From a virus, in IMG/VR virus record IMGVR_UViG_3300017973_000001, positions 45,431 through 109,430 of that record: a stretch of 64,000 nt of DNA. The stretch is one strand, 5' to 3'. The position numbers were made by a program, and so were the translations under genes. The notes under the pieces are model-generated. The model made no database searches and was not told where the DNA came from. It was given only the letters and a program-made list of their open reading frames with translations. Position 1 is the stretch's first letter; each line of letters starts with the position of its first letter. Shown piece after piece: positions 15,325 to 36,487 of the stretch.

Positions 15325-15756
15325 TCAATATTTTTTCTCTCTTACTCGGACTGTAAGACCTTCCATTTTTACATCTTTATCACCATAAATATAATAATCA
15401 TTACCGTTATGCTCAACCCTTGAAGTACGCCAAATTTTCTTATAATCCTCGATTACCATATACTCAATACCTTCACCACTTGTATAGTAGTCGTCCATAT
15501 CAGTGATCCAATATCGGCCATCTTCTTTTTGAAATAGGGTACCAGTATGAATTACCTTTCTAGTGAAGTATTCTAACGTATGGTTTATATCAAAAAGTTT
15601 ATCTACAATAGTTTCATACTCACTTGCTAGCTGACGCTCATTAGGGCTACTAGTATTATACTGAATGTTGTCGGTATAACCATCCATTCCTCTATCAATT
15701 TGTTTAATAAGTGTAGATATTTTAGCAAGATTTAACTTCAAATCCTCTAGTTTCAT
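15325..15756 (-). CDS. DUF5348-like domain protein
   Basis: GRYWI..YYTSGEGIE..SRVEHNGNDYY..GLTVR; SD AAGGAGG. Confidence 0.65.
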   Translation of the reverse strand: MKLEDLKLNLAKISTLIKQIDRGMDGYTDNIQYNTSSPNERQLASEYETIVDKLFDINHTLEYFTRKVIHTGTLFQKEDGRYWITDMDDYYTSGEGIEYMVIEDYKKIWRTSRVEHNGNDYYIYGDKDVKMEGLTVRVREKKY

Positions 15757-15855
15757 TTTTGCTCCTCCTTATTAAGTTCTAGTTTTAATATTACACATGG
15801 TAAACGAAATTCCTTCTCGATACAACCACCACCTTACCATAAATAAAAAAGGCCA

Positions 15856-17709
15856 CTATGCAGTGACCTTCGTTTCTTTAACTTGTTTACCTATTAATTC
15901 CTTAATTAGTTGCTTAGCAGTAACTAGACCGACAACCTCAACACCATTATCTAGTAAGTTCTGAGCCATACTCTCCTTACGATCCACGGTAGCTTTTACA
16001 TGTTCATCTATTGTATCGACACATTGTAGGTAGTGAACTGTTACTGCGTTACGTTGACCGATACGGTGGGCCCTTGAGAAAGCTTGCTCTACATATGCAT
16101 AAGACCATTCTAAGTCAGTAAATACAACGTGAGTAGCTTTAGTAAGTGTCAGCCCCTCACGACAAGCAGTAGAGGTACCTAAGAATATTTTAGATGAGTC
16201 ATCTTTTTGGAACTTATATACTTGGAGCTGACGTTCAGACGTAGTTCTATCTTCAACTAACTTTTCACGTTCTTTCTGAGTTAACCGGCTCCACTTAGTT
16301 CCGTATTCACGTTTCAACTCACGTACTGCTGAAGTAATTGTTTTACCTTGAGCGTCCACGTCTCCATGAATAATTGCCGGATTGTAGTGAGCATATCGTT
16401 CTTCAAGAAGGTGGATGAGTGACTTAAATCTACTGAACACGATAACCTTTTCGCCACCCTCGATTAAATCCTCTAGTAAATCATCTAATGCTTTTAACTT
16501 AGCTGAGTCATCTTTTCCACCGATTAAAGCCGGGGTGTTCGTGATCTGCTGAAGCCTCATCAATTTAGCTAAGCTAGATGGTATTTGCTCAAGGGACGTA
16601 TCGGTTAAATCCTCAAGTATCTCACGTTTAACTGCATTGTATAGTTTCTTCTGTCCAGGAGTCATTTCTATTTTAATTGTTCTAAAAGTAACTTCCGGAA
16701 GTTCCTTCAGCTTATCTATCTTTCTTCTACGTAACATGTTTCTTTGAATATTCGTTTTTAACTCAAGTATATTTTGATACCCAATTACTTCCTTACCACC
16801 ATATCCACCTAAGATAGCATATCTTTGTTGGAACTCAAACCAATGCATATCTACTTGCTTACCTAACTTCAAGTAGTTATAAGCTTCAAGTGGTGAGTTG
16901 GGAAGGGGGGTGGCCGTTAAGATATACTTACATTTAAACGGGATCTTATGGATAGAGTCACCCATCTTAGACATAGGGTTTTTAATCTTATGTGCTTCAT
17001 CCAGGACGATGAAATCTAGTGATTTTTTAGTGTCCAGGTGTTGGAAACACGGGTAAGTATCACGGAAAGTCTCATAACTAACTATAATAAATGTCCAATC
17101 GTCTGAGTAAGTAAGCTCACTAAACATTTTACTTCTCTGTTTTACATTACCAGTTAATACAACTGCTTTCTCATTAGTGTGCATATGAATTTCATCACGC
17201 CAGTTATAAACTAAGCTTGCTTTAGCTACAATAACACCACGTTTTACTTTACCGAGCTTTTTCTTGGCCTCCATAGCCGTAGCTACTTGCCAACTTTTAC
17301 CAAGTCCTTGCTCATCTGCCAGGATTAAAAAGTCTTTCTCGACTAATAAGTTATGACCCTTTACTTGATACTCACCCCACGGTGTAGTTTTAAATCCAGT
17401 ACTATTAATAATCTTCCCAGTTAAATCATACTTAATTGAGTAACCAGGAGTAGTAGGGTAGGATGGAATAGTATCCTCACTAATCCCACCACCGTTAGGT
17501 TCCTCGTTATCCCAAACAATAAGGTGCTCAGCCATAAGACTATTAAATTTATCTAACTGAGAGTAGGGGACTGCCCAACATTCCCTTACTGGTGAATAAC
17601 TTGCTCCCGGAATAGTTCCCATCTTTTCTGTATATTCTTTGTTCTTTTTGAATGAGACTTTTAACCAGTCAGAATCATCAAAACCCTTAATTTTTTCTGC
17701 TTTAATCAT
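15856..17709 (-). CDS. SNF2-family helicase
   Basis: LADEQGLGKS, VLDEAH, LTATP, EKVIVFS, EGLTLT and QAFSRAHRIGQ motifs. Confidence 0.95.
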   Translation of the reverse strand: MIKAEKIKGFDDSDWLKVSFKKNKEYTEKMGTIPGASYSPVRECWAVPYSQLDKFNSLMAEHLIVWDNEEPNGGGISEDTIPSYPTTPGYSIKYDLTGKIINSTGFKTTPWGEYQVKGHNLLVEKDFLILADEQGLGKSWQVATAMEAKKKLGKVKRGVIVAKASLVYNWRDEIHMHTNEKAVVLTGNVKQRSKMFSELTYSDDWTFIIVSYETFRDTYPCFQHLDTKKSLDFIVLDEAHKIKNPMSKMGDSIHKIPFKCKYILTATPLPNSPLEAYNYLKLGKQVDMHWFEFQQRYAILGGYGGKEVIGYQNILELKTNIQRNMLRRRKIDKLKELPEVTFRTIKIEMTPGQKKLYNAVKREILEDLTDTSLEQIPSSLAKLMRLQQITNTPALIGGKDDSAKLKALDDLLEDLIEGGEKVIVFSRFKSLIHLLEERYAHYNPAIIHGDVDAQGKTITSAVRELKREYGTKWSRLTQKEREKLVEDRTTSERQLQVYKFQKDDSSKIFLGTSTACREGLTLTKATHVVFTDLEWSYAYVEQAFSRAHRIGQRNAVTVHYLQCVDTIDEHVKATVDRKESMAQNLLDNGVEVVGLVTAKQLIKELIGKQVKETKVTA

Positions 17710-18313
17710 TTTGTTTCACCTCCATATATCTTCTATATACTGTAGTAAGAGAGAGTTTTAGAATCTTAGAAATCTCTCTAAAAGACTTTTGCTCAATATC
17801 TCTGAGTTTTATAATCTCATCTTTGAAATCACTATAAACTATACCGTACTCTCTTAATAGTTCCCAAACTGATTGACCTTTCATTCTTGCATGGTAATAC
17901 AAACGGTCATATAGTTTCTTATCGATATAATTACCATTTTCTTTTACCATTTCTATTAACTCATCTAGGCTAGCAAATTTATCATATTCAATAATAAAAC
18001 CTTCTTTAAGTAATGAGTCTGAAATTCCTCCGAAAGTGGATATATAATTATATATATTTCTATTTTCTTTTCTTAATTTTGTAAGATTTACCTTCTCTCC
18101 ATGATTATAGAGAAGGTACATAATACATTTATCATAACTTTTTAATCCTCTTTGGTCATCTAAGATCATAATTCCTTGCTCATCTAATTCTTTAGATAAC
18201 CTCACACTATTACTTTTATAGTAAGAGAAAAGAGGGTAGTTTGTTCTTCTTAATACTGATAAAGGAAGAACATTATTTCTTGCTAAACTACTTAGAATTT
18301 TAGGTATACTCAT
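17702..18313 (-). CDS. HTH DNA-binding protein
   Basis: C-terminal SFREISKILKLSLTTVYRR. Confidence 0.7.
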   Translation of the reverse strand: MSIPKILSSLARNNVLPLSVLRRTNYPLFSYYKSNSVRLSKELDEQGIMILDDQRGLKSYDKCIMYLLYNHGEKVNLTKLRKENRNIYNYISTFGGISDSLLKEGFIIEYDKFASLDELIEMVKENGNYIDKKLYDRLYYHARMKGQSVWELLREYGIVYSDFKDEIIKLRDIEQKSFREISKILKLSLTTVYRRYMEVKQND

Positions 18314-19120: not shown

Positions 19121-19206
19121 ACTTCTCCTCCATAGATAACTCCTAAATAATATAGGAGTTACCTATATTTTATCATTATTGGTTATTATATCCTATCGGT
19201 ATATTC

Positions 19207-20961: not shown

Positions 20962-21720
20962 TTACACGGCTTTAATACCAGTATAATCCTCTAGATATAT
21001 TGGTTGTTTTCCTTTCATGAACATGGTGTGACCAATTTTCTTTTCTAGTTCAACGTACTCTCTATATAAATCCGGATTTTGCTCAGCTCCGTGCCTCAGA
21101 TCATTAAGGCAACCCATAATGCAAAATACACAACTTAATCTCTCATTCTTCTCATAAGCCCAAAATGGTTTCTCACCGGCAGAATAGATAGTTTCAAAAA
21201 CTTCTTCTGTAGTTAAGTAGAATATAGGGAGCCAGTCATAAATATGCCTTACTACACGTCCATTACAACTTTCACGTTTATTATATTCAAATGGATTTTT
21301 CTTAGCTCTAGCAGAAGATTCTTGAGCTCTTAATCCCATACAGTTAATTCCAATCGTAGCCCCACGTTCTTTTAAGTCATTACGAATGAACTTAAATATA
21401 GGGCCACGTTTTAAGTCACTCGTACATTGACGGTAAGCAGAGCTTGGCCAGTAGCGTCTTTGTTCAACCATTTCAAAAAAAGTCTTTTTAGCTCTTACTA
21501 CATTTACGTCCGTGTAAGTGTATTCAAAAATATGCTCTCTAACACCGGGCCACTCAACCTTACCTAGATCAGCATGGACCACTACCAGTTGTTGAGGAGG
21601 GACTATATCTCTAAGAAGTATATACATAGATTGGGAGTCTTTCCCTCCGGAATGGGAGCAGTAAAATACTGCTCCTTCTTCAGCTAGGTTAGAAATCTCT
21701 AAAGGCATATAGATTTTCAT
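20962..21720 (-). CDS. PAPS-reductase-family PP-loop protein
   Basis: SHSGGKDS, RQCTSDLK, GLRAQESSAR and RLSCVFC motifs. Confidence 0.88.
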   Translation of the reverse strand: MKIYMPLEISNLAEEGAVFYCSHSGGKDSQSMYILLRDIVPPQQLVVVHADLGKVEWPGVREHIFEYTYTDVNVVRAKKTFFEMVEQRRYWPSSAYRQCTSDLKRGPIFKFIRNDLKERGATIGINCMGLRAQESSARAKKNPFEYNKRESCNGRVVRHIYDWLPIFYLTTEEVFETIYSAGEKPFWAYEKNERLSCVFCIMGCLNDLRHGAEQNPDLYREYVELEKKIGHTMFMKGKQPIYLEDYTGIKAV

Positions 21721-21916: not shown

Positions 21917-22888
21917 TTAAGCCGTCTTAGTTCTTCTACCGGGCTTAGCTACTAAGTGCCCTAGATTGTTCTCTTTAATAAACTGTTTACAAACTTCAGT
22001 CCATGTATATTTAAGAGTGCCACCATCTACTTTTATATCAATATCAACACCTTTGACTCTACATTGATAGAAACCGTGAATGAAAGTTAAACTACCACCG
22101 GCAAAAGATTTACCATAATTCATCTTGAAATAATTTACCAGTTCTTGTAGTTTGAAAGTTTTACTTTGGCTCTTTAAGCTATCTAAACCATTAGGGTTTA
22201 ACTTAGTTCTTACAAAATACTCAAGTACTAAGTCTTTATCGTAATAGCCATTAGCAAATGGGTCAGTATCTTCAAAAACAGTATTTTTCACTTCAACCAC
22301 CGGATCAGCTTTCTCCTCGATAGGTTCATTTTCTTCCTCGATAGGGTCATCACCGAACTCATCTTCTTCAGCAATTTCAATAACTTCAGTATCAACCTTT
22401 GATTCAACATTTTCAGTTGCAGTTGATGTAGCTTCTTCAAGCTTAAATACTTTCATAAGTAGACTTTCAAAAGCGTCTAGTTCCTCAAAGTCCATAGATA
22501 GTAAATCAATGGTTCCACCACGGCCTACTTTATCTACTGCTAGTAGAGGGAACACTTGGAACTTACCATGTTCAACATAAATTCTCACTTCATTCTTATC
22601 AGACTTGAATACCGTAGGTTTTTCAAAATCCCAATAAGTTGGATTAGCTTTTTGCTCTCCACCCTCACGGATCAAGTTGTTCACCATTTGTAGTTCATTG
22701 AATAAATCTTGTAATACTTCAGCACTGAAGCTAGTAACATCAAGTGTAGCTCCACGGCCAACTTTACCACTGAATTTAGGGAATACTTGAACCTTACCAT
22801 GCCCATTGAAGAAACGGATTTCATTACGAACATTTGAAATTACTTCCGGTGTTTCTACTTCCCAATACTTTACATAACCTCTAGCCAT
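21917..22888 (-). CDS. protein with tandem duplicated domain and acidic linker
   Basis: two copies of YW..E.P....NE.R....HGK.QVFP....KVGRG.T.D. Confidence 0.75.
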   Translation of the reverse strand: MARGYVKYWEVETPEVISNVRNEIRFFNGHGKVQVFPKFSGKVGRGATLDVTSFSAEVLQDLFNELQMVNNLIREGGEQKANPTYWDFEKPTVFKSDKNEVRIYVEHGKFQVFPLLAVDKVGRGGTIDLLSMDFEELDAFESLLMKVFKLEEATSTATENVESKVDTEVIEIAEEDEFGDDPIEEENEPIEEKADPVVEVKNTVFEDTDPFANGYYDKDLVLEYFVRTKLNPNGLDSLKSQSKTFKLQELVNYFKMNYGKSFAGGSLTFIHGFYQCRVKGVDIDIKVDGGTLKYTWTEVCKQFIKENNLGHLVAKPGRRTKTA

Positions 22889-22990
22889 TTTAAATACTCT
22901 CCTTTTGTGCTCTTGGCACTATTTATGTAGGTATTAAAATACCCCATTGAAAAACCCCTCCGAATAGGGGAGGGGTTAATCTAGCGATAT

Positions 22991-23206
22991 TTAATTCTTC
23001 ATAATAGCCAGTATTTCTTTTGCCGTTTTTATATCTTCTTTAGGATTTTCACAATCAATTAGATTGTTCTCAATATTATGTAGCTCATTTTCAACAATAC
23101 CTCCAACTATGGAAACTAGTGGAGAGTTATCTTCACGTTCTACGAAAAATAATTCCTTTGCGATACATTCAGCAATAAATTTTATGTGTTGCTCTTTGAA
23201 CTCCAC
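22991..23206 (-). CDS. hypothetical protein
   Basis: SD AAGGAGG, GTG start. Confidence 0.65.
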   Translation of the reverse strand: MEFKEQHIKFIAECIAKELFFVEREDNSPLVSIVGGIVENELHNIENNLIDCENPKEDIKTAKEILAIMKN

Positions 23207-23219
23207 AATTAAGACCTCC

Positions 23220-23834
23220 TTAATATTTATAAGTTACATTCTGTACACCATAGTAAGCATTGTTACCGTCAGCGTCAGTATCGCTACCGTCTCTTGTTAA
23301 ATCCTTCAATTCAAAGAATAAACAGTATTTACCAGTCTGAGGAGCAACGAACGTTTGTGTAATTGTTTTTGCAGTTTTAAAGTCCATCACTCCGAATTTT
23401 TGTGGTGTACCTATGTCTGTTTTCTGAGTTAGTAAGTAATTATATGCAGTGAATAGAGCCCCACCATTACCTTTATCCACACTATCCCATTGTGCAAATC
23501 TCACGGTTGCATAAGCAGTATTCAAAGTACCATTAAATGCGTTCTTAAAAACTAGGTGAGATAACATTTTAAAAGATACCGTGATCTTAGCTCCTTTTTT
23601 AACCACGTCAGTTGGTTCAGTTACAAGACCACCCGGTTCTGCAAAGTTAGCTGACCATGTTCTTTGATAGAATGAACCATTGTTAGCGTAGAAATTTTGA
23701 TTCGCATAGCCAGGAGAAGATAAATACACTTTCTTAACAACTTTTACTTTTTGTGTTGTTGCTTCAGAATGGGGAGGGGCTATTAAACAAGCTCCTACCA
23801 ATAAAGACATTAATAATTTACCAGTACGTTTCAT
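23220..23834 (-). CDS. secreted beta-rich protein
   Basis: signal peptide MKRTGKLLMSLLVGACLIAPPHSEA; SD GAGGAGG. Confidence 0.7.
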   Translation of the reverse strand: MKRTGKLLMSLLVGACLIAPPHSEATTQKVKVVKKVYLSSPGYANQNFYANNGSFYQRTWSANFAEPGGLVTEPTDVVKKGAKITVSFKMLSHLVFKNAFNGTLNTAYATVRFAQWDSVDKGNGGALFTAYNYLLTQKTDIGTPQKFGVMDFKTAKTITQTFVAPQTGKYCLFFELKDLTRDGSDTDADGNNAYYGVQNVTYKY

Positions 23835-23835
23835 T

Positions 23836-24081
23836 TTACTTTTCCTCCTCTTTTTTAGGTATGAATGTAGGACTAAGACATACGCAATAACGGTGTCTAT
23901 CTTCTTTAAGCTCACAATCTATGTAATACTCAATGTCATTGTCATACTCATCCTCTAATAGTTTCTTACCTTCCTCATCTAGTATTTTCTCAATGAAGTA
24001 GTTTACTAATCCTTGTGGTTCTTCAAATATTATTGTTTCTGTATGACAACCAGTATCACTAAATAATACTAGTACAACCAT
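23836..24081 (-). CDS. hypothetical protein
   Basis: SD GAGGAGG before MVVLV. Confidence 0.6.
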   Translation of the reverse strand: MVVLVLFSDTGCHTETIIFEEPQGLVNYFIEKILDEEGKKLLEDEYDNDIEYYIDCELKEDRHRYCVCLSPTFIPKKEEEK

Positions 24082-24184
24082 ATGGACCTCCTCATTATAC
24101 TTTTCGTCATAATTGTTGTAATTTTTTACCAATTGAAAAAACCCCAACCGGAAAGGGGTGGAGGAATTAAAAAAGGATTAACCA

Positions 24185-24577
24185 TCACACTTGTTTTTGA
24201 GCGTGTTGTTTAATCCATTCTATTACATATTCTATTGGTGGTCTTGTTTTGTCATTTGCTACCAGTGAAACAAAGTCATAAACTTCTTCATCTGAAGCGA
24301 TTAAATCGTAACCATTCAAATCAAGAAATGCTGACGTTGACATATACGCAGTACGTTTATTACCATCTTTAAAACAATGACCTGAAGCTAGAAAGAAAAG
24401 GTAAGCTCCGGCTTTATCAAATATTGTAGGGTATTTCTCAAAATCACCAAATCCGGAACATGGAATCATTAACTTTGCTTCAAGATTACCCGGTTCCCTA
24501 CCTGGAAAGCCACCGTATAAGTCTAGTGCAACTTGGTGGATATATTCTACTTCATCAACTTCCAAGTAGATAACCAT
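24185..24577 (-). CDS. doc: Doc/Fic-family toxin
   Basis: HCFKDGNKRTA Doc motif. Confidence 0.92.
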   Translation of the reverse strand: MVIYLEVDEVEYIHQVALDLYGGFPGREPGNLEAKLMIPCSGFGDFEKYPTIFDKAGAYLFFLASGHCFKDGNKRTAYMSTSAFLDLNGYDLIASDEEVYDFVSLVANDKTRPPIEYVIEWIKQHAQKQV

Positions 24578-24717
24578 TAGTTTTTACTCAATCTTTCTAA
24601 AGCTTTACCGTTACGTGCAATAACTTTAGCAACGCTTTTTTCAATCATTTTTTGACGTTCTGTTTTTTCTTGTTTTTCTTTTAGTAACATTTCATCATCC
24701 CTCTTTTTCTCATCCAT
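24577..24717 (-). CDS. 46-aa putative Phd-like antitoxin
   Basis: SD GGGGGTG; ends ALERLSKN; stop overlaps doc start. Confidence 0.65.
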   Translation of the reverse strand: MDEKKRDDEMLLKEKQEKTERQKMIEKSVAKVIARNGKALERLSKN

Positions 24718-24850
24718 ACCGGACACCCCCAATCTATACTGAATAGTATATGATATGATAGGTTGTCCAGTTATAGGATAGTTTATTCTAAATATTATAT
24801 AATTTAAGAATATTCGTCCACAAAAACTATTCGACAAATATTCATAAACA

Positions 24851-25381
24851 CTAGAGTAATATAACTTCTTCGATATAAGAATTTACTAACTCAGCTCCGT
24901 GAGTATCACGTTTCTCATTACCTATAATTAAATTATGCTTGTAAATTTTAGCAAGCAAGTCGTTAGGTACATTCATAGGAACTATTGTTTGAGGTACTGA
25001 TCCACCCATAGCTACATGTTCACGTAATTCAATATCCGTAAATCGTTGTGAAGGGGCAAAAGAATAATCACTTACACAAGTTAATGCCCAATTACATGAG
25101 GTAAGGTCTAGGTAATATAAAAGGTAAGGTGCCTTTTCAAATAACGTTTTCATGTATTCACGCATTTCCGGAATCTCAAATAATTCATCTGTTGTATCGT
25201 CATAAGCTGAAGTGAATAGGTTCAGACCTTGAAAGTGCTCTTTATTTAATTGTTTTAAGAAATTAACTAACGGCTTTACATAGTTGTTAGTTATGTCTTC
25301 ACCTTTAATTTGATAAATTATAACTGTTGTTTCTTTAGCTGATTTTCTACGTAAGCTCTCAGCTACCATTGGGTGTATCAT
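24851..25381 (-). CDS. CRR6/DUF1817-like protein
   Basis: YDDTTDELFEIPEMREY..PYLLYYL. Confidence 0.55.
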   Translation of the reverse strand: MIHPMVAESLRRKSAKETTVIIYQIKGEDITNNYVKPLVNFLKQLNKEHFQGLNLFTSAYDDTTDELFEIPEMREYMKTLFEKAPYLLYYLDLTSCNWALTCVSDYSFAPSQRFTDIELREHVAMGGSVPQTIVPMNVPNDLLAKIYKHNLIIGNEKRDTHGAELVNSYIEEVILL

Positions 25382-25391
25382 ATAATTCCTC

Positions 25392-25979
25392 CTAGTTTTT
25401 AACCATTGTTGCTAATACTTCAGCTACTTCTTTAGTTATCTCGGCTACTTTTTCTACATCACCGTCAAACTTTTCAATTAGTTTATCTACTATCTCATGA
25501 GCTTGAGGTGTATCAACCTCTTTCTCATCAACCCATTCCTTACTTACGTCATTATAAGTGCTATCCAACTTTGTTTGAATGAAGTCATATATGTCTGAGT
25601 AGTGTTTATCTTGGAGTTCCCCTAAAAGTTCGTCTACTTTATCTAGGTCATGTAAGTTTTCTTTTTTAACTTCATCATCAACTTGAGTTCTATCTTCAAT
25701 AATCGTCGCCATAGCAACTTCATGAATAGCGTGTGATAAGATAGTGCCATTTGGGTTCTTAGCATAAACTTTAAAGTATACTCCATGATCGTGGTCCTTA
25801 ACAACTTCGATAGAGTCTATTTTAAAAAATCCTAATCTACCAATTAGGAAATTTTTAAGTTGAGAACTACTCGCTAGACTGAACACTTCTGTTACAGTTT
25901 GCCATTCTAAACCCAGTTCTTTAATAACATCATCAACACTTACTAGAGTTTCAACGTAAAAATTAGTTGTCGTTTTCAT
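25392..25979 (-). CDS. hypothetical protein
   Basis: SD GGGGAG. Confidence 0.7.
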   Translation of the reverse strand: MKTTTNFYVETLVSVDDVIKELGLEWQTVTEVFSLASSSQLKNFLIGRLGFFKIDSIEVVKDHDHGVYFKVYAKNPNGTILSHAIHEVAMATIIEDRTQVDDEVKKENLHDLDKVDELLGELQDKHYSDIYDFIQTKLDSTYNDVSKEWVDEKEVDTPQAHEIVDKLIEKFDGDVEKVAEITKEVAEVLATMVKN

Positions 25980-25990
25980 AATATCTCCCC

Positions 25991-26308
25991 TTAAATGTAT
26001 TGGTCAAACGATACTTTTCTGATTGTGCCTCTTTCTAGGTTGCAAAGAAACAATTTACCTCGGCCACTATCAATGTAATGGCCCCGTGCTTTTTGGATAA
26101 TTTTTATATACTGCTTACCACCGTCAGTATCAATACTGTCCATGAGGTGGGTACCACACGTATGGACAAACCAAAGGAATTGCTTTTCGTTATTCTCAAC
26201 CACTTGCTCAATCCTTGCCATATCATGAATGTAGAAATCATCTTGATAGTGCTCCATGATAGATTTAACTTTTTTCTCCATGCCTTCTTTTAATTTTTCT
26301 AGTTTCAT
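25991..26308 (-). CDS. hypothetical phage protein
   Basis: DFYIHD..FLWFVHTCGTHL; SD GGAGGAG before MKLEK. Confidence 0.7.
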   Translation of the reverse strand: MKLEKLKEGMEKKVKSIMEHYQDDFYIHDMARIEQVVENNEKQFLWFVHTCGTHLMDSIDTDGGKQYIKIIQKARGHYIDSGRGKLFLCNLERGTIRKVSFDQYI

Positions 26309-26366
26309 AGTCTCCTCCATATGAAAATCCCTCCCGGAAGGGGGAGGGGGGTAGCTTTTACCTCTT

Positions 26367-26654
26367 TTATATTACATTCTCGATTCTACCCTCTAAATAA
26401 TTTTTGTATTCGTCTACTTTGTTAAGATCGTTAGTTAATATGATAGTATAATTGCTTTCCCATACATTTTTTGTAGTTACTATTGCAATAATATATTTAG
26501 CTACATTTTTATTAATATTAATTCTTTCAGCGTCATAAAAAATATAACTATCTAAAAGTGTACCTTCAAAACATTGACATTCAATGTCTAACTTTACTGA
26601 TAAAGATAACACTTCTTCTAATTTATCAGAACTAACATTATTTATCTTAATCAT
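26367..26654 (-). CDS. hypothetical phage protein
   Basis: EGTLLDSY..NVWES. Confidence 0.7.
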   Translation of the reverse strand: MIKINNVSSDKLEEVLSLSVKLDIECQCFEGTLLDSYIFYDAERININKNVAKYIIAIVTTKNVWESNYTIILTNDLNKVDEYKNYLEGRIENVI

Positions 26655-26899
26655 ACAGTATCCTTACCTCCAACTTTCACATGCTTTTTCCAATATTTCT
26701 GTGGTAAAGTAATAACTTTATATGTGTAACCTTGTTGCCTAAATGCAAGTTTGTATTCACGCATTAAGTGGTCTCTATCTGCTTTATCTTCTGCATAATC
26801 AAGATGTTCATATGCTCTATCATAAGGTGTTTTAACTAACAACTGAAACATATATCCTTGTTGTGGGTCATAAGCTTTTGGGTGTGCCATAATATCCAT
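26651..26899 (-). CDS. hypothetical phage protein
   Basis: PKAYDPQQGY..LPQKYW. Confidence 0.7.
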   Translation of the reverse strand: MDIMAHPKAYDPQQGYMFQLLVKTPYDRAYEHLDYAEDKADRDHLMREYKLAFRQQGYTYKVITLPQKYWKKHVKVGGKDTV

Positions 26900-26904
26900 C
26901 CTTT

Positions 26905-27189
26905 CTAGTTTATATTTAAGGCTTTTCTATATTCCGGTTTGTCTAATATATACCATCCCATTAAATCACCTTGATTTACCGTAAAGAGTTTGTAACCATC
27001 TTTCAATGCTTGTTCTCCGGCTTCAGTATCACTTTTAAATTTTGCGATACCGTACTCATCTAAACAATCAAGTTTTTGTATGAGTTCTACACCATGTTGG
27101 CTATCATAAAAAACGGTGTAACCTCTCTTTAGTTCTTCGGTAGTCCACCCTTGTTCTTTAGAAATTTGTTCATAATCAACATTACCCAT
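26905..27189 (-). CDS. hypothetical protein
   Basis: SD AGGAGG. Confidence 0.7.
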   Translation of the reverse strand: MGNVDYEQISKEQGWTTEELKRGYTVFYDSQHGVELIQKLDCLDEYGIAKFKSDTEAGEQALKDGYKLFTVNQGDLMGWYILDKPEYRKALNIN

Positions 27190-27270
27190 AATAAATACCT
27201 CCTAAAGTATTTTTGGAATTAGTAACTCCATGAGTACCCCTATGATCCAGGGAGGGGTACCTAGCAATCA

Positions 27271-27711
27271 CTAATTATTTTCGTACCATTCTTTCTGAGA
27301 TTTAATTGCTTTATTTAAACCATGCTTAAGTTTTTCACTTGCATTAACCTCATCAATCGTAAGACATAAAGCGTCAAGTGTATCTTCTACATCATAGGTA
27401 ATTACAAACTCATGATTTCCTAACTCATAGTTGAACATATCAAAGATATATCCGTCTCCCGTTTCATCACCTTCAATAGCTTCTTGCCTTTCTTTTTCGT
27501 GTCTATTCATCATTTCTTTAAGTTTTTCTGAGTCTGTACGTTTGTAAAATCCACCAGTACCACTAAGGCTATATATCTTATCTGTATCCTCCGGTTTTAG
27601 TCCAAATTTAGCCATACCTTCATTAAATTGTTCATTACTAAATGCGAAAAACATAGGAAACTCATTAACCTCTTTTTGTTGTTTATCTTTCAATACTGTA
27701 TATGCGTTCAT
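27271..27711 (-). CDS. conserved phage protein
   Basis: FFAFSNEQF..YELGNHE; SD GAGGAGG before MNAYT. Confidence 0.7.
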   Translation of the reverse strand: MNAYTVLKDKQQKEVNEFPMFFAFSNEQFNEGMAKFGLKPEDTDKIYSLSGTGGFYKRTDSEKLKEMMNRHEKERQEAIEGDETGDGYIFDMFNYELGNHEFVITYDVEDTLDALCLTIDEVNASEKLKHGLNKAIKSQKEWYENN

Positions 27712-27766
27712 TTTAAAATTCCTCCTCATAGTTAAACCCTCCCGGAAGGGGGAGGGCATATTTATT

Positions 27767-28054
27767 TTATTTAACTTCACTAAAAGCTACTAAGTCCTCT
27801 AATGCTTCATTCCCGTAAGATACTTGTGTTTCATGGAAACCCCTTTTAACAGACTTGATAAATTTATCTACATTTTCATCACTAGTAGGTAAGCCTTTTT
27901 TCTCAAGTGCTGACTCAACATCTTCTCTACTCCAACGGATAGTATCAAATACAGTAGATACATCACGAATTTCTTCAATGATACCCATACAACCTAATAA
28001 ACTTCGGATTTCACTCTCACTAAAATTAGTGTCTATTGTAATACTATATTTCAT
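27767..28054 (-). CDS. hypothetical protein
   Basis: IRWSREDV motif; SD present. Confidence 0.7.
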   Translation of the reverse strand: MKYSITIDTNFSESEIRSLLGCMGIIEEIRDVSTVFDTIRWSREDVESALEKKGLPTSDENVDKFIKSVKRGFHETQVSYGNEALEDLVAFSEVK

Positions 28055-28067
28055 TTCCCAATTCCTC

Positions 28068-28958
28068 CTAGTCTAATGTAGTAACTGCATATAACTTTTC
28101 ACTGGTATATTTTTCTGCAATTAATATAATTCTATCTACCATCTTTCTCTGAATATTGGTAGACTGTGTGAAAATAGGTAGGTCGATCTTCAACCATTTT
28201 GGGCGTTTAAATTCTGTATGTTCTAATAAGGTAACTCCGTTATTAAACTCCTCATTAGTGGTATAGATTTTAACCCACCCACTATCTAAACCGTACTGGT
28301 TTTCATCAAGACCTTTAACAGTATCAGCTATTTCACCTTTATACGGTTCAATACATTCTTTGATACGATTTTCAAAGTTTGTGATTGAGTCATTCAGCTC
28401 CGATAACTCAAGTTCACCCATTTGCTTAGTCTTGAATGAAGCTTGAATGGTTTTAGCTATTCTACTATCCATGCGACCTTCACATAGTTTAGTGAACTCA
28501 TCACGGGTAACACTTTCATCTGTGTACACTTCAGACCAACCGGACTCAACTAATAAAATTTGGTTTGCATATAAGCCGTAACTCATAAGATATTTATTCC
28601 CGGTTTTATTAATCTCATATCGGTAGATAAAAGGACAGTCACGATTCCACCAATCATATACAAACTTAGGTGTTAAACTAGGGGAGTAATTAATTTCATC
28701 ATTTAGCTCAAACCCATAGAATGTATCAATACTGTTTTCATCAATCTCAACTTCATTTAGGTAAGGTCTAATCTCATTTACACGAAGGAAATATTCTAGG
28801 AATTTGAGATTAATAGATAGATTGTATTCACCAACTGTATTGTGTCTAACAATACATCTACTAGGTACTTTAAATTGGGTTGTACCATCTAAAAACTTCA
28901 TTCTTACTCTAATCACTGTACTGCTAGCTTTCTCAATCAAAAGCTTTATCTTTTTCAC
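28068..28958 (-). CDS. hypothetical protein
   Basis: 296 aa; SD AAGGAGG, GTG start. Confidence 0.75.
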   Translation of the reverse strand: MKKIKLLIEKASSTVIRVRMKFLDGTTQFKVPSRCIVRHNTVGEYNLSINLKFLEYFLRVNEIRPYLNEVEIDENSIDTFYGFELNDEINYSPSLTPKFVYDWWNRDCPFIYRYEINKTGNKYLMSYGLYANQILLVESGWSEVYTDESVTRDEFTKLCEGRMDSRIAKTIQASFKTKQMGELELSELNDSITNFENRIKECIEPYKGEIADTVKGLDENQYGLDSGWVKIYTTNEEFNNGVTLLEHTEFKRPKWLKIDLPIFTQSTNIQRKMVDRIILIAEKYTSEKLYAVTTLD

Positions 28959-29170
28959 ATTAGGTCCTCCTTGTGCTCAGTGGCACTAATTTAGGTAATA
29001 GTTACCCCATAGTACTCACAACTATTTTCCGTTCGTTGTGAGCACTAGCAATAACTATTAAGTCACTGCAACCTATAATCCAAAAACAATTAGGAGTTGG
29101 AGTGTTTGACACTCCTTGATACACCCCACCCGTGGATCATAAGGGGGGAGGTGCATTAGGAATTTCAAAC

Positions 29171-29416
29171 TCACTTAATGTAAGCGTATTGTGGTGTACG
29201 TTCACCTAACTTGTACCCAATTAGGTCAGTATATTCTTGTTCGATAATATGAGGATTCTCTTTTAGTAAGTTAGCCTTAGCTTCTTCAATATCAGCTCCA
29301 GTAGAAAACCCTAATACTTGATAGTTTTCACATTCATCACCATCTTTAGGGGGAAGGGTAACTCCTTGTTCATTAATGAATATCCAGTGTTGAACGCCCT
29401 CATGCTTTTGTTTCAT
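29171..29416 (-). CDS. hypothetical protein
   Basis: ENYQVLGF; SD AAGGAGG. Confidence 0.7.
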   Translation of the reverse strand: MKQKHEGVQHWIFINEQGVTLPPKDGDECENYQVLGFSTGADIEEAKANLLKENPHIIEQEYTDLIGYKLGERTPQYAYIK

Positions 29417-29711
29417 TTTCTATTTCCTCCTTATTTTCCTCACCTAAATTGTGTACATCAAACACATCTCTTACTTTTTCCATTATTTCTTGCTTATCTG
29501 TTAATCGGTTATTTCCTTCTTCGCCAAAATCTTCACCCTCGAACAATTCCATAAAACTAACTGCGTCATCTAATGCCCAGTACAACATAACAATTAGTCT
29601 ATCCTTATCCGAGGCTTTCTCAATACATCGTTCAGAACAGAAGTTAGAACTTCCAATACACCAACCTTCTGTAAACCCATTATGGCAAACTGTACACTCT
29701 CTCACTTTCAC
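29400..29711 (-). CDS. zinc-binding hypothetical protein
   Basis: CTVC..EGW..FCSERC. Confidence 0.7.
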   Translation of the reverse strand: MKVRECTVCHNGFTEGWCIGSSNFCSERCIEKASDKDRLIVMLYWALDDAVSFMELFEGEDFGEEGNNRLTDKQEIMEKVRDVFDVHNLGEENKEEIENETKA

Positions 29712-29755
29712 TGGTTTTCCTCCTTATTTCCCACCCCGGAGGGTGGGGGCTCCTA

Positions 29756-30247
29756 TTAAAGTATTCCTCGTTCTACTAGCATATCGTCAATTTCACAAGT
29801 GTAAGCGTCCCATACCCACTCTTTAAGTCTACCGTTATCATCAAGGATACTTCTATCATTAGGTAAGTCCTCACCTTGTATTGTGAACAAGTGCTCCTCA
29901 CCTTCATCTACTACAATAATTTCGTCACGTCTAGGTGAGTATTGCACTTCAAAGTACGTCCAAGTAGAAGGCCACCCTAGAATTACCTCTACACTCTCTA
30001 AGTCCATGTGCTTTAAACCAATAAACGAATACATATGGTCTACGATAGATATTCCATTCGTCGCAACCCACCACTCATTACCAACACATGAGTAATAATG
30101 TAACTCTCTACCTTGAGGGTCTACATACTCATGCACATCACTACGTAAATCGAACGTTAATACTTCACCTTTCTCATCACGGACAACTTCAATTTTTCCG
30201 TAAAATTCTTCATCACTCATTCTTACAAGCTCTGTAACTGCTGACAT
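29756..30247 (-). CDS. hypothetical protein
   Basis: SD AAGGAGG. Confidence 0.7.
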   Translation of the reverse strand: MSAVTELVRMSDEEFYGKIEVVRDEKGEVLTFDLRSDVHEYVDPQGRELHYYSCVGNEWWVATNGISIVDHMYSFIGLKHMDLESVEVILGWPSTWTYFEVQYSPRRDEIIVVDEGEEHLFTIQGEDLPNDRSILDDNGRLKEWVWDAYTCEIDDMLVERGIL

Positions 30248-30365
30248 ATTAATTTCCTCCTTGTGCTCAATGGCACTCTAGTTTTTGAAGTATAGGTAAC
30301 TCCATGAGTACCCCCCGGATCGAGGGAGGGGGTACCTAGCAACTACCTATTGACGATTACCTTAA

Positions 30366-30623
30366 TTAATCCCCGTTTAAATCGTTATAATTAATCATGC
30401 TACGGCAAGCTCTTAATTGGTGTTCTAGTTCTTCTTTATCAACTTCAATCCCTGTATCCTGAATCCCTTTGAATACGAATAGTGAAACAACAGTTAGAAA
30501 GGTGTCGTACTGTTCAATTTCACTAAGAACTTGATTGATTTGTTCAGTTGTTAAGTTTAGATTAAGTATTTCTTTTGCAATCACTTCTACTTCATTACGA
30601 ATTGAAAAATCTGTTTTGTTCAT
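30366..30623 (-). CDS. hypothetical protein
   Basis: coupled to upstream gene; SD GAGGTG. Confidence 0.7.
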   Translation of the reverse strand: MNKTDFSIRNEVEVIAKEILNLNLTTEQINQVLSEIEQYDTFLTVVSLFVFKGIQDTGIEVDKEELEHQLRACRSMINYNDLNGD

Positions 30624-30967
30624 GCGTTCACCTCATTCATAAGTTTTTGTTCTTTACAACGCTTACGCCAGTTGAGAGCGTGTTTATTTTCTGTAGGGGA
30701 GAGCTTCAGTAATATATGGTCAGTCGCTCCAAAGTAGAAAGGCATAACACTCTCGTCCATTATTTTATACGAAACTTCATTACCTTTTTGTTCAGTTAAA
30801 ACAATAACTCCCACAACTTTTCCAGTGTGGGAGCTCTCTACTGCTAAATATACGGTTGTACCTACTTGCTCTGAAGCTTTTACCTTGACTTCATTTTCTT
30901 CTATCATATCAACTACAAATTTCTCAACACTAACTCCACTTGAAATACTTTCTGTCCACCAACCCAT
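30620..30967 (-). CDS. DUF6927-like protein
   Basis: MGW..YKIMDESVMP..LSPT..ALNWR. Confidence 0.7.
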   Translation of the reverse strand: MGWWTESISSGVSVEKFVVDMIEENEVKVKASEQVGTTVYLAVESSHTGKVVGVIVLTEQKGNEVSYKIMDESVMPFYFGATDHILLKLSPTENKHALNWRKRCKEQKLMNEVNA

Positions 30968-30981
30968 TATTAATTCCTCCT

Positions 30982-31320
30982 TTATTCAACCCAAAAGTAA
31001 GCATAAATTTCTTCGTTATCGTTATCCTCTTGGCAATAAGCCAGTACTTGCTCATCACCTCTAAGTAAAAACGCTTGTATCTTATAGGTTTTTTCAGTTT
31101 GACTATCGAACACTGGTATTGAACCACCGACTACCCAAAGAGCGTCATGCTCACCGTGATGGCTACCACTAATAGGAGCTACCTCGTAATCAAAAGAATA
31201 TTCAAGTTCAGTTAATATACACTCTACTATTCTTTGAATACCCATAAACTCTACGAAGTTCAGTTTTTCTTTAAGGTTACTTAAATCAACGTCTTGACCA
31301 ACTTTTTCTAATTCCCACAT
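30982..31320 (-). CDS. hypothetical protein
   Basis: SD AGGAGG. Confidence 0.7.
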   Translation of the reverse strand: MWELEKVGQDVDLSNLKEKLNFVEFMGIQRIVECILTELEYSFDYEVAPISGSHHGEHDALWVVGGSIPVFDSQTEKTYKIQAFLLRGDEQVLAYCQEDNDNEEIYAYFWVE

Positions 31321-31403
31321 AATGAGACCTCCTAAATATATTGGAGTATAGGTAACTCCATTGAAAGCCCACCGGTGGGGGTGGACTCTCTAGCAACTAC
31401 CTA

Positions 31404-31601
31404 TTAAGCATTAACTGGTGAGCCTACTGGTTTATATACATTCAACCCAATTTTGATACCGTCTTTACCGGGCACTGATTTATTTCCTTGTGTGCTTGCA
31501 ATAATTTGTGACTTACCACTTGATGATAAACCGTAGTCTTTATCAAGCTCAACCACGATAGTTAATTTGTTACCTTTGATTGTCATTTGTACGTTTTGCA
31601 T
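31404..31601 (-). CDS. 65-aa beta protein (SSSGKS..ASTxGN family)
   Basis: LTIVVELDKDYGLSSSGKSQIIASTQGN..KIGLNVY. Confidence 0.8.
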   Translation of the reverse strand: MQNVQMTIKGNKLTIVVELDKDYGLSSSGKSQIIASTQGNKSVPGKDGIKIGLNVYKPVGSPVNA

Positions 31602-31696
31602 TATAATTTCCTCCTATGTGCTCAACGGCACTCTGTTTTAGAGTTGATAACTCCACAAGTACCCCCATGATCCAGGGGAGGGGTACCTAGCAACCA

Positions 31697-31951
31697 TCAA
31701 CGATACATTACTTCAATCCTAGATAGGTCAACGTGATTTTTACCTACTAAGAATCCAACCCTATCAGAAATTCTCCAACCATTATCGACGGTAAAGTGTA
31801 CATTACCACGTACAGTATATACATATGACTCACCGTGTTTTTCTTTCACTTGCTCCAACAATGCTTCAGCTTCTTTACTGGTAGCTATCTCGTAGTTACC
31901 ATGTTCATCTACTACTAAATCTGCTTTTTCCTTAAATTCCTCAAACGTCAT
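31697..31951 (-). CDS. hypothetical protein
   Basis: SD AAGGAGG. Confidence 0.7.
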   Translation of the reverse strand: MTFEEFKEKADLVVDEHGNYEIATSKEAEALLEQVKEKHGESYVYTVRGNVHFTVDNGWRISDRVGFLVGKNHVDLSRIEVMYR

Positions 31952-31967
31952 AGTATTCCCTCCTTAA

Positions 31968-32198
31968 TTAACACGTCCCACAATAAGAGATTGCAAGTTC
32001 TATAGGGTTTTGTCCAGGGTCATCATGCTCAGTTCCGATAAAGTCACGTCTGCATATATCACAAGTATCCCAAACAATGCCAACCTCGTTGTTAACGTGG
32101 TTAAGCAGTATGTTATAAGGTTTCTCATATCCATGTACGAACTGAGAAGGGATGAGTTTAACTGTTTCTCCAAATTGTTGCGTAGTTCCTAAAGCCAT
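31968..32198 (-). CDS. zinc-binding hypothetical protein
   Basis: CDIC..CGTC; SD AAGGAGG. Confidence 0.65.
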   Translation of the reverse strand: MALGTTQQFGETVKLIPSQFVHGYEKPYNILLNHVNNEVGIVWDTCDICRRDFIGTEHDDPGQNPIELAISYCGTC

Positions 32199-32344
32199 TT
32201 TGTTGAACCTCCTTGTCGTCTGATGAAGTTCTGTAATTCCTTAATACGTTCGTTATTCTTCTTCAGCTTCTTGAAATCATAGTCAATACCCATGTTTTCA
32301 AATTCAAGGTTACGTATCTCTCTTTCAGCTTGTTCGATTGTCAT
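32189..32344 (-). CDS. 51-aa hypothetical protein (not in ORF track)
   Basis: MTIEQAEREIRNL..; SD GGAGG. Confidence 0.6.
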   Translation of the reverse strand: MTIEQAEREIRNLEFENMGIDYDFKKLKKNNERIKELQNFIRRQGGSTKWL

Positions 32345-32422
32345 ATGAGAACCCTCCGATTTTAGTTTTTGGGTAGGCCCCCGTGGATCATAGGGGGTGG
32401 GGGGGGGCTACCAATTAGTTAG

Positions 32423-32488
32423 TTACTTTTGCCAACCATAACCAACTTCCTCTAAGTATTCTAAAAACTCATCTAATACGTTGTTCAT
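32423..32488 (-). CDS. 21-aa micropeptide (not in ORF track)
   Basis: MNNVLDEFLEYLEEVGYGWQK; SD AGGAGG in its own hairpin-bounded unit. Confidence 0.5.
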   Translation of the reverse strand: MNNVLDEFLEYLEEVGYGWQK

Positions 32489-32572
32489 CTTAAAGCCTCC
32501 TAAAGTTTTTGGATTGATAACTCCATGCTATCTCCACCCATTGATGAGGAGGGTGGAAATACGTAGCAATTA

Positions 32573-32911
32573 TCAATCAGCTACTATTGTGTAAAGGTTA
32601 CAGTTCTCGATAGTCTTACTAGTTCCATTAGCAAACCCAATAGCTCTTACATTTTCAGTGCCAGTATATTTCACATCTACACAAGTCTGCTCATCACCAG
32701 GAGCCATTACACATAATGTTACATACTTACCGTGAGGTAATTTCACTGATAAGGTGTGCATAGAGTTGCCAGTTCTTGGGGCTAACCCCGATAAGTCTAT
32801 AAGTGAGTGGTCACAGTTATTGAAGGTAGGATATGTCTTAATATCTAACTCCTCCATTAGCTCCGGTGTAACCGTACCGATATAAACTTTCTTCTTTAAA
32901 TCGATTGCCAT
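32573..32911 (-). CDS. hypothetical protein
   Basis: SD AGGAGG. Confidence 0.7.
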   Translation of the reverse strand: MAIDLKKKVYIGTVTPELMEELDIKTYPTFNNCDHSLIDLSGLAPRTGNSMHTLSVKLPHGKYVTLCVMAPGDEQTCVDVKYTGTENVRAIGFANGTSKTIENCNLYTIVAD

Positions 32912-32997
32912 TGTAAATTCCTCCTATATGGTTGTTTTGGATTAAGGGTAGGTACCCTTATTGGAGCTCCCACTGGTGGGGGCAACCTAAAGATTAC

Positions 32998-33255
32998 CTA
33001 CATGAATAATGGCATGATGATGAAGAATATAATAGATAACCCACATATACCTCCAACTGCTAACCCTATAAGGAGTGTGTTCAGTATGTCTTGACCTCTA
33101 AGTACATAAGCTTTCTTAAGTAGGGTAGTATCACCATCAAATACACGCTCTGTTAATTCGTTCAAACTACCTTTGCCATACTGTATAGGTCTTGAATTAG
33201 GTTGAGCACCTTCACCCATACGGATTTTTGCTAACTTTTCACTAACTGTCATCAT
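32998..33255 (-). CDS. C-terminally anchored membrane protein
   Basis: C-terminal TM; SD GAGGT. Confidence 0.65.
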   Translation of the reverse strand: MMTVSEKLAKIRMGEGAQPNSRPIQYGKGSLNELTERVFDGDTTLLKKAYVLRGQDILNTLLIGLAVGGICGLSIIFFIIMPLFM

Positions 33256-35222: not shown

Positions 35223-36157
35223 CTATCATATACACCAGTTTAATACGTGGGGTGTCAACCCTAGCATAGTGAGACTATGCCCGTACATTGAAGTAGTGTA
35301 TAACCCTAACCCGTTTTTCACGTTTGGGAACTACAAGACCCGTTTCAGTGGGGTCAAACTACTATACATAGAGGGGGCAAGAAAACACGTTTTCCACGTC
35401 TTACCCCTTGCCAATGATGGAAGTGACACTTCAATCAAAGGAAAAGAAAGGGGGCTCGATACAGTACAAACCTATTAAAAAGGCAACCCACTATGTAATT
35501 TGTCAAAGAACAATGAAACCGGGAATCTCAAGAACTTTGAAACCCGTAAAGCTATGAACGGGGCTAGGAGCTCCCCGTGTCGCAACCAACAACTCGTTTC
35601 GACAACCGTTATGTATCACGCATTTCAAATCTTGTGTGCAATTTTTTTATTTATTTTATTTTTATTTGCTCTGTTTTTGGTCATGCCGTGGGCATGAAGT
35701 GGAAAAGAGCCAAAACCCTTGATATATAAGGACCTACCCCAGTGCCTAGAGACAAATTTTTAACGAAAATGGGCCGTGGTGGCATAACAACACCTACACA
35801 GTATTTTTGCTGAAGGGCAATTCGGTACAACCGTGCTTTTTCGGATCAATGACATACCATTGGTGTGTTTGGGGGAATTGGGGCGCTAAGGCTCCTGCGT
35901 AATTGGGAATTGGGGGTGGGGGAAAGTGGGAGATGTGGGAATGGTGAGACCCCGTTGGAGCGTTTCCGTGGGGCGTGAGGTGGGCCTGGTAGATCGTAAA
36001 AGTTTGGCATTTAGAATAGGGAACTTTTTGAAATCTGTAAAAGTTGTGGGTTTAGAATGGGTAACTTTTACAATTCCGTGGTCCGGGCACCAGGTAGTGG
36101 GAGCATGTTGGAGTATCTTTCCTGGGGGCGTGAGCTGAGATCATTGGGAGTTCGGAA

Positions 36158-36210
36158 AAGTAGACATTACCCTATAGGAAGTAGACATTACCCTATAGGA
36201 AGTAGACATT
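36158..36210. repeat. 21-bp tandem repeat x2.5
   Basis: AAGTAGACATTACCCTATAGG. Confidence 0.9.
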
Positions 36211-36487
36211 CTCTTATAAATATATTTATAGGAATATGTCTACTTTATGGGAAAAGTGCGAGACTCCTGTGGGTATAGTGGGGTGGGTGGGAACCAATGA
36301 GTGCGAGCAACCCGGAGTGATTGGGGGCCTGGTGCATGATCTATAATATAAAAACGGGGGAGTTGGGAAATACGTGGGAAATATTTATACGGGAAAATTT
36401 TTACTAAAGGGTAAATATGGTAAAACCTATACTTTTCAAGGTTTTGGTGTGGTAAAATAAGGCTATAATGTAAACACGGGGGACAAC

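Follow-up and report, generated by a model that had tools for sequence, protein, structure and literature searches.

Probable mRNA processing signals of the SP82/SPO1 type between the early genes of a Jenst-related phage from peat

The early block and its intergenic hairpins

The stretch of DNA analysed here (the window, 64,000 nucleotides (nt)) comprises bases 45431-109430 of the IMG/VR virus record IMGVR_UViG_3300017973_000001, a phage genome of 109,430 base pairs (bp) with direct terminal repeats, and it contains a block of small leftward genes, many of them separated by members of a family of imperfect hairpins that is the subject of this report. The sole sequencing run that holds DNA of this phage is a peat metagenome. 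Its large terminase shows 51% identity to those of Brevibacillus phage Jenst and Bacillus phage EZ-2018a and 61-71% identity to those of 17 uncultured contigs, including the complete records G001-G004; the phage is a distant, siphovirus-like relative of Jenst. The leftward block, which begins near 37 kb and ends near 2.6 kb, consists of small open reading frames (ORFs) without Pfam matches, followed by genes for an SNF2 helicase and an actin-like protein, and a rightward block, from 42 kb on, carries the terminase and the structural genes. Judged by this layout, the region with the hairpins is presumably expressed early, and we refer to it as the early block. A megablast comparison of the region with 50,697 phage records gave no match, only three early ORFs are common to this phage and its relatives G001 and G002, and a host search over genome contigs returned a single match, one Bacillota metagenome-assembled genome (MAG).

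Nine hairpins of one family lie between the ORFs of this block, all of them on the gene strand (Table 1). An earlier interpretation made from the letters of the window (the sequence-only reading) had listed eight on the minus strand; all eight lie where it placed them, and the outer-stem sequences that it quoted are correct and always pair. The ninth, the degenerate copy E8, was missing from that list, and its loop is inverted relative to those of E4 and E10. The fold of every copy has an outer and an inner stem with an internal loop between them (-21 to -31 kcal/mol, z-scores -2.1 to -8.7). The helix measures about 20-26 bp, of which about 11-12 bp lie below the internal loop and 9-13 bp above it. 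The placement relative to the genes, also part of the earlier interpretation, holds as well: the start of seven of the nine lies -2 to +5 nt from the stop codon of the gene upstream, the stops being often tandem and in frame, and every copy is followed, 18-51 nt downstream, by a strong Shine-Dalgarno sequence (SD) of the AGGAGG type, which the hairpin does not sequester. The downstream flank is A-rich and free of U tracts in eight of the nine; a U run occurs only in E14, which is a terminator/processing hybrid at the end of the block, with the frame of the family built around a terminator-like hairpin.

Within the whole 109-kb genome, both the linear motif TTGCTA..TGGRG and the covariance model described below are confined to this block. 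The motif has eight matches in the window against 1.6 expected, a number reached in 0 of 100 shuffles; two of the eight are nested or chance matches, and the exact motif is present in six elements.

A core in common with annotated RNase III sites of SPO1

Covariance model R1, built from the eight window copies only, was run on the whole 132,562-bp SPO1 genome and gave only five matches at E<=1, all in the first 14 kb. Four of these are the features labelled 'RNAse III site RS-A, RS-B, RS-C, RS-D' in GenBank AF031901.1 (coordinate offset 1685), an older record of the SPO1 host-takeover module that annotates RNAse III sites RS-A to RS-F. The fifth and best match is an unannotated hairpin between genes 58 and 57 (NC_011421 12230-12276, minus strand), which partially overlaps the annotated terminator TL2.7. 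SP82G yielded the same five matches, and in the relatives G001 and G002 R1 matched clusters of sites in the block that corresponds to the one described here. The SPO1 sites lie between early genes on the sense strand, have UUGCUAG...AUGGAG in common and, as do the window copies, hold a stop codon in the 5' arm and are followed by a strong SD. The sequence-only reading had suggested RNase III processing or stabilising sites like those of SP82 and SPO1, and had proposed a search of phage genomes with a covariance model; that search, with a model that knew only the window, detects RS-A to RS-D and their SP82G counterparts, and supports the suggestion at the level of sequence.

A second model, R2, rests on 50 matches, 44 of them distinct, from this phage, G001, G002, SPO1, SP82G, SP8, SPO1L1, Goe9 and Goe16. 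It finds 9 copies in this genome, 9-10 in G001, 8 in G002 and 6 in SPO1, where a weaker match lies in the leader of gene 44 (NC_011421 5801-5849, plus strand). The copies of G001 and G002 lie in the equivalent block, although these genomes have almost no early genes in common with this phage. Pairing is retained throughout: in the alignment of the 44 distinct sequences 93.9% of the cells pair, as against 65.8% when shuffled and 30-54% with slid partners, both sides have changed in 18 of 19 pairs, and covariation is seen in all three helices. These figures are flattered, the alignment having been fitted to the model, but the unfitted alignment of the eight window copies gives the same picture, with both-side changes in 15 of 20 consensus pairs.

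Between the covarying stems stands a core that is conserved in sequence, with (U/C)9 U10 G11 C12 U13 A14 G15 in the 5' strand and A86 U87 G88 G89 A90 G91 in the 3' strand. U13 and G91 are invariant in the 44 distinct sequences, which come from three lineages, and G89, A86, U87, G11, A14 and U10 are conserved at 86-98%. Of the earlier description of a conserved core with a bulged G, the conservation stands and the bulge does not: C12-G88 is replaced by A-U or U-A in nine sequences while G89 remains constant, which favours a conserved G11-G89 mismatch beside a UA/NAU internal loop over a bulged G. The letters of the core, on inspection, also misfit the tandem G-A and AGUA/GAA consensus sequences, so that the K-turn and loop E (bulged-G) readings were rejected. 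The inner stem-loop is constrained as a helix only. The loops of E3 and E8 are the reverse complement of the E10 loop over 13 nt, E4 being likewise opposed, and RS-C of SP82G (L184 8247-8294) is the flipped form of SPO1 RS-C (L047 11808-11855); since loops are present in both orientations, their sequence is not read. The two orientations look like the outcome of a flip inversion between the stem arms at the DNA level.

The fold itself is read on the mRNA strand, as indicated by the excess of G-U pairs over A-C mismatches in the stems (24:1 in the window, 12:1 in SPO1). Every copy is sense-oriented, in SPO1 on both strands. The ratio in G001 and G002 is 15:13 because one outer-stem A-C mismatch is itself conserved there; most of their copies (L043, L044) have it at the same outer-stem place (AUAGA.. 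/ ..CCUAU), kept and uncorrected. Taken together, these are covarying hairpins between genes on the sense strand, with a core identical to that of annotated SPO1 sites.

Table 1. Hairpins of the early block, in window coordinates. R1 and R2, covariance models described in the text; RS-type, with the core or frame of the family.
Feature	Position	Strand	Remarks
RS-type hairpin E1	32948..33001	-	Degenerate core UCUUUAGG / AAUAAGGG; TAG stop of upstream gene in 5' arm; z -2.5; 56 bits with R1
RS-type hairpin E2	32512..32578	-	Full core; tandem in-frame stops TGA TAA in 5' arm; z -6.6
Plain GC hairpin E3	32373..32413	-	Without RS core; no match to R1 or R2; non-member
RS-type hairpin E4	31643..31701	-	Full core, GUGGAG variant
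Mini hairpin AGUGCC..GAGCACA	31617..31632	-	Between E4 and next SD
RS-type hairpin E5	31348..31404	-	Full core; z -4.9
RS-type hairpin E6	30292..30350	-	Full core; top-scoring copy, 75.5 bits
Mini hairpin AGUGCC..GAGCACA	30262..30277	-	Between E6 and next SD
Plain GC hairpin E7	29730..29748	-	Between genes; non-member
RS-type hairpin E8	29104..29170	-	Ninth, degenerate copy; UUCCUAAU / UCAAGGAG; 24 bits with R1, 51 bits with R2; z -4.1
RS-type hairpin E9	28996..29060	-	AUGGGG variant; inner stem AU-richer; z -8.7
Mini hairpin AGUGCC..GAGCACA	28972..28987	-	Between E9 and next SD
Plain GC hairpin E11	27735..27757	-	Weakly terminator-like; non-member
RS-type hairpin E10	27217..27276	-	Full core; in-frame stops TAG TGA in 5' arm
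Plain GC hairpin E12	26327..26349	-	Terminator-like; non-member
RS-type frame E14	22933..22995	-	Degenerate core UCGCUAG / AAUGGGG; inner hairpin, then UUUUU; z -4.1
Mini hairpin AGUGCC..GAGCACA	22906..22920	-	Between E14 and next SD

A further short hairpin, at 19132-19166 of the window (minus strand), has GGAG and an outer stem like those of the RS type (AUAGGUAAC...GUUAUCUAU) and lacks an inner stem; it scores 20 bits with R1 and may be either a relic copy or a plus-strand terminator.

Database searches returned no known family for these elements. At the gathering threshold the whole window has no match to an Rfam family, at E<=1 positions 22800-33200 give nothing relevant, and Rfam holds no family for SPO1-type RS sites; nor did Rfam reveal ribozymes in the sampled regions of G001-G004. 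A scan of viral contigs for the linear core gave at least 80 loci; those listed were all single matches, and the model rejected every one of them. R2 found no match in 121 bacterial genomes of the class of a MAG with a related terminase, a search that had no positive control and scored only 45 candidates per genome.

A proposed processing mechanism and its alternatives

We give a probability of about three in four to the interpretation that the hairpins are mRNA processing signals of the SP82/SPO1 type. Because they have the same core as the annotated SPO1 RNase III sites, their most likely effect is the cutting of one long early message into separately stable, single-gene messages. With regard to cleavage, the enzyme, the cut position and the stabilising effect in this phage, we infer the following course. 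The leftward early block would be transcribed as a long polycistronic RNA, in which many genes would be separated by a helix whose covarying outer stem, holding the upstream stop, and GC-rich inner stem-loop flank a non-canonical core: in order, a U-G or C-G pair, a U-A pair, the G-G mismatch, a C-G pair and the UA/NAU internal loop. RNase III of the narrow-specificity Bacillus type would recognise this core and bind a two-turn helix centred on the internal loop; no phage-encoded RNase III domain was found, so that the enzyme of the host would do the cutting. A single cut would fall in the 3' strand at the internal loop, by analogy with SP82. The upstream message would then end in the stable inner hairpin, as a shield from 3' exonucleases, and the downstream message would start about 25-60 nt before a strong AGGAGG SD, where bound ribosomes would shield it from 5' decay. 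This 5' protection may be helped in four copies by a GUGCC..GAGCAC mini hairpin, and possibly by a small hairpin of the freed 3' arm.

Published work on SP82 provides the precedent for this scheme. SP82 RNAs are the classical non-native targets of Bacillus subtilis RNase III (PMC4838370). They contain internal loops, and the enzyme makes a single cut in them, on the downstream strand (PMC1935012; PMC4838370). The SP82 RNA downstream of such a site is described as a 5' stabiliser that depends on a ribosome-binding site (Hue et al. 1995, as cited in PMC7509114 and PMC11805744).

Two features downstream of the core touch on the fate of the new 5' end. The mini hairpin occurs in four copies, against 0 expected, just before the SD, and it recurs in the relatives (4 copies in G001, 6 in G002) on the same strand, either directly next to the 3' arm of an element or overlapping it. 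In addition, all 31 copies examined have, immediately downstream, bases with which the 3' core strand and arm can pair, forming a second hairpin that starts at most 4 nt from the presumed new 5' end. The complementary segments are lineage-specific, being GGAGU/ACUCC here, AGCAC/GUGCU or GUGCC/GGCAC in G001 and G002, and AGCC/GGCU in SPO1. Since the mean z against shuffled downstream sequence is only -1.0, such a second fold after the cut is suggestive rather than established.

Several points weigh against the processing interpretation. The one run that holds the phage is of DNA, with no RNA run beside it, and the host RNase III named as the partner is a presumed one. The RS labels of SPO1 may have been mapped in SPO1 or may have been carried over from SP82, and two of the sites so labelled, RS-E and RS-F, are divergent, unlike the core and without an R1 match, so that the core is not required of every annotated site. 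Four intergenic hairpins of the same block (E3, E7, E11 and E12) lack the core. Finally, R2, with a first-look filter that may lose weak copies, found none in G003-G005, Jenst, EZ-2018a, SP10, phiNIT1, SPP1, SPbeta, Bastille, phage K or 000TH008, and one marginal match in A511; the early region of G003 has no comparable hairpin family. The motif is therefore not a universal solution among phages of Bacillota, those of B. subtilis included.

The hairpins might instead bind a sequence-specific RNA-binding protein of phage or host, for example as a translational operator or a coupling device, the core being a recognition surface and not a nuclease site. Conservation of the core in sequence, and not merely in structure, would be expected of such a site, the stop codon in the 5' arm means that a terminating ribosome would open the helix, and the 3' strand has the alternative pairing described above. 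The SD, however, is left free by the hairpin, the annotation of the SPO1 copies names RNase III, and 30 ORFs from the early block and its surroundings gave no match to an RNA-binding or nuclease family of Pfam, which leaves nothing in favour of the phage-encoded binding protein that the sequence-only reading had considered. Since few early genes are shared even with G001 and G002, and the same core is present in SPO1-type phages, a common partner would have to come from the host; a factor common to the hosts would be the economical choice, and for the SPO1 and SP82 copies that factor would be RNase III. Binding in place of cleavage thus appears improbable. Quite improbable, too, is a role that involves no cut, in which the hairpins would attenuate transcription or passively block 3' exonucleases. 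The inner stems are GC-rich and very stable, E14 has its U run after the inner hairpin and the plain hairpins E11 and E12 are terminator-like, but eight of the nine copies have A-rich sequence downstream in place of a U tract, and a passive barrier needs neither an invariant non-canonical core nor a covarying outer stem of 10-12 bp. Lacking a U tract, the copies other than E14 do not fit the pattern of an intrinsic terminator. A promoter within the element, with TTGCTA as the -35 box, was rejected: no -10 box stands at the right spacing, promoter-like sites are below chance level (56 against 67.8 expected), and the stretch of 18-51 nt from hairpin to start codon contains none.

The sequence-only reading had also raised a function at the DNA level, in which hairpins with extrahelical bases, similar to the attC sites of integrons, promote the shuffling of gene cassettes; hot spots like the T4-type PeSL (promoter-early stem-loop) would be a variant of this idea. 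Gene exchange near the elements is indeed visible. Between G001 and G002 several blocks of homology have an end at an element or within one, and three elements are conserved between two flanks that are not. Among the SPO1 relatives, Goe9 and SPO1L1 carry an additional gene whose insertion point coincides exactly with the 5' edge of the gene 58/57 hairpin, in Goe16 a divergent hairpin and a gene stand in place of RS-C, and in SP8 the gene 57 ORF is replaced between its SD and RS-C; the flipped inner hairpins (E3 and E8 versus E10; SPO1 versus SP82G RS-C) also indicate DNA-level events at palindromes. Under uniform placement, 6 of 28 block ends between G001 and G002 fall within 15 nt of an element, against 1.9 expected (p 0.012). 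With the comparison restricted to intergenic positions, the count becomes 6 of 18 against 3.6 expected (p 0.14). Gene junctions are where the breakpoints fall, and an element stands in many of these junctions. A specific role in recombination is not supported: in the test that the reading had proposed, gene gain and loss breakpoints show no enrichment at the elements beyond that of intergenic position. Nor is there any R''/R' pair (RYYYAAC ... GTTRRRY), the 3' arms reading GTTACCT, GTTATCA and GTTACTA, none of which fits GTTRRRY. The single tyrosine recombinase lies 42 kb away and is no integron integrase: its best models are XerC and XerD (about 200 bits), and the integron model, with a cut-off of 265, gives 107 bits. 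The bias of G-U over A-C, a mark of selection on one strand as RNA, speaks in the same direction. We regard recombination sites as very improbable; cassette swapping could be no more than a by-product of the conserved sequence between genes.

Other features of the genome deserve mention in their own right. Within the early block, at 24188-24717 (minus strand), an ORF of the Fic/DOC family (130 aa; Pfam E 3e-12) follows a 46-aa ORF, with an AT-rich stretch free of genes (24740-24850) also ahead of it, and the arrangement looks like a toxin-antitoxin pair of the Phd/Doc type; another early ORF (27274-27711, minus strand) is a strong member of DUF7659 (E 1e-51). Tandem repeats (21 nt x3, 41 nt x2) lie at 35996-36220, upstream of the block and near its presumed start, and a PAPS-reductase-domain protein is encoded after it (20965-21720, minus strand). 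The actin-like (ParM/Alp) protein at 6719-7774 (minus strand), the XerC/D-like recombinase at G000:C1:25976-26464 of this genome and the flagging of G001 and G002 as proviruses in isolate genomes suggest that the group may live as phage-plasmids. In G002 (L044), an array of about 13 tRNA genes occupies 15562-17811, on the strand opposite to its early block.

Relation to known processing sites and cassettes

The punctuation of the early block of this genome is in itself ordinary and already described in principle, sites of the SPO1/SP82 type being known since 1983. Modestly new are the occurrence of the family outside the Herelleviridae, an invariant core that can now be spelled out, and the absence of the family from Rfam. 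The target determinants of B. subtilis-type RNase III are still undefined, being referred to as 'uncharacterized features' (DiChiara et al. 2016, PMC4838370). The same non-canonical core occurs in phages as distant as SPO1 and this Jenst-like peat phage, with stems that drift freely, and this conservation makes the G-G mismatch together with the UA/NAU loop a concrete candidate determinant, testable with a few mutant transcripts. As no Rfam entry exists, phage annotation pipelines miss the family; the alignments obtained here could seed one. A more far-reaching proposal, which we consider speculative and on balance unlikely, treats the RS hairpin as a two-state punctuation module that is portable and common to unrelated phages of Bacillota. 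In this view the sequence features by which Bacillus-type RNase III selects its targets would reside in the invariant G-G / UA-NAU core, the 3' strand released by the cut (GGAG...) would refold with downstream bases into a 5'-terminal cap hairpin, and the module would also offer a patch of homology for swaps of early genes.

Among known systems, the attC sites of integrons resemble the present elements in being imperfect hairpins with unpaired bases that separate small genes; in contrast to them, the hairpins here have neither R'/R'' boxes nor an integron integrase, and selection is visible on the sense RNA strand. The PeSL cassettes of T4-type phages, which Arbiol and colleagues reportedly described in 2010 as carrying an early promoter, are similar in that repeated stem-loops stand between small early genes that change fast, and genes are gained and lost next to these stem-loops. 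Here, however, the 18-51 nt that follow the hairpin hold an SD and no promoter signal above chance, and an excess of breakpoints specific to the RS elements was not seen in the intergenic comparison of G001 with G002.

Closer parallels are found among RNA processing sites. The early sites of T7 (R0.3, R0.5, R1, R1.1 and R1.3) are intergenic hairpins with an internal loop, a single cut on the 3' side and a protective 3' hairpin (PMC1935012). Escherichia coli RNase III does not cut the tested targets of the B. subtilis enzyme (PMC8708148). The hairpins described here have the same arrangement as the coliphage sites but no sequence similarity to them, and the enzymes differ in specificity (E. coli versus Bacillus RNase III); for the T7 signals, too, no Rfam model exists. 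The closest relatives are the SP82/SPO1 processing sites for B. subtilis RNase III, which are reportedly the subject of work by Panganiban and Whiteley in 1983, Mitra and Bechhofer in 1994 and Stewart and colleagues in 1998; RS-A to RS-C are presumably named after the three SP82 sites of Panganiban and Whiteley. Differences exist: (i) the carrier here is a 109-kb siphovirus-like phage of a Jenst-related lineage, whereas the SPO1-type phages are Herelleviridae; (ii) the outer stems are of 10-12 bp here and of 7-8 bp there; (iii) the flank after the core is UUA here and CC there; and (iv) this phage has a downstream mini hairpin of its own, and its processing sites are predicted ones. In spite of these differences, both families stand between early genes on the sense strand, fold as stem, loop and stem around the core UUGCUAG / AUGGAG, hold a stop codon in the 5' arm and precede a strong SD.

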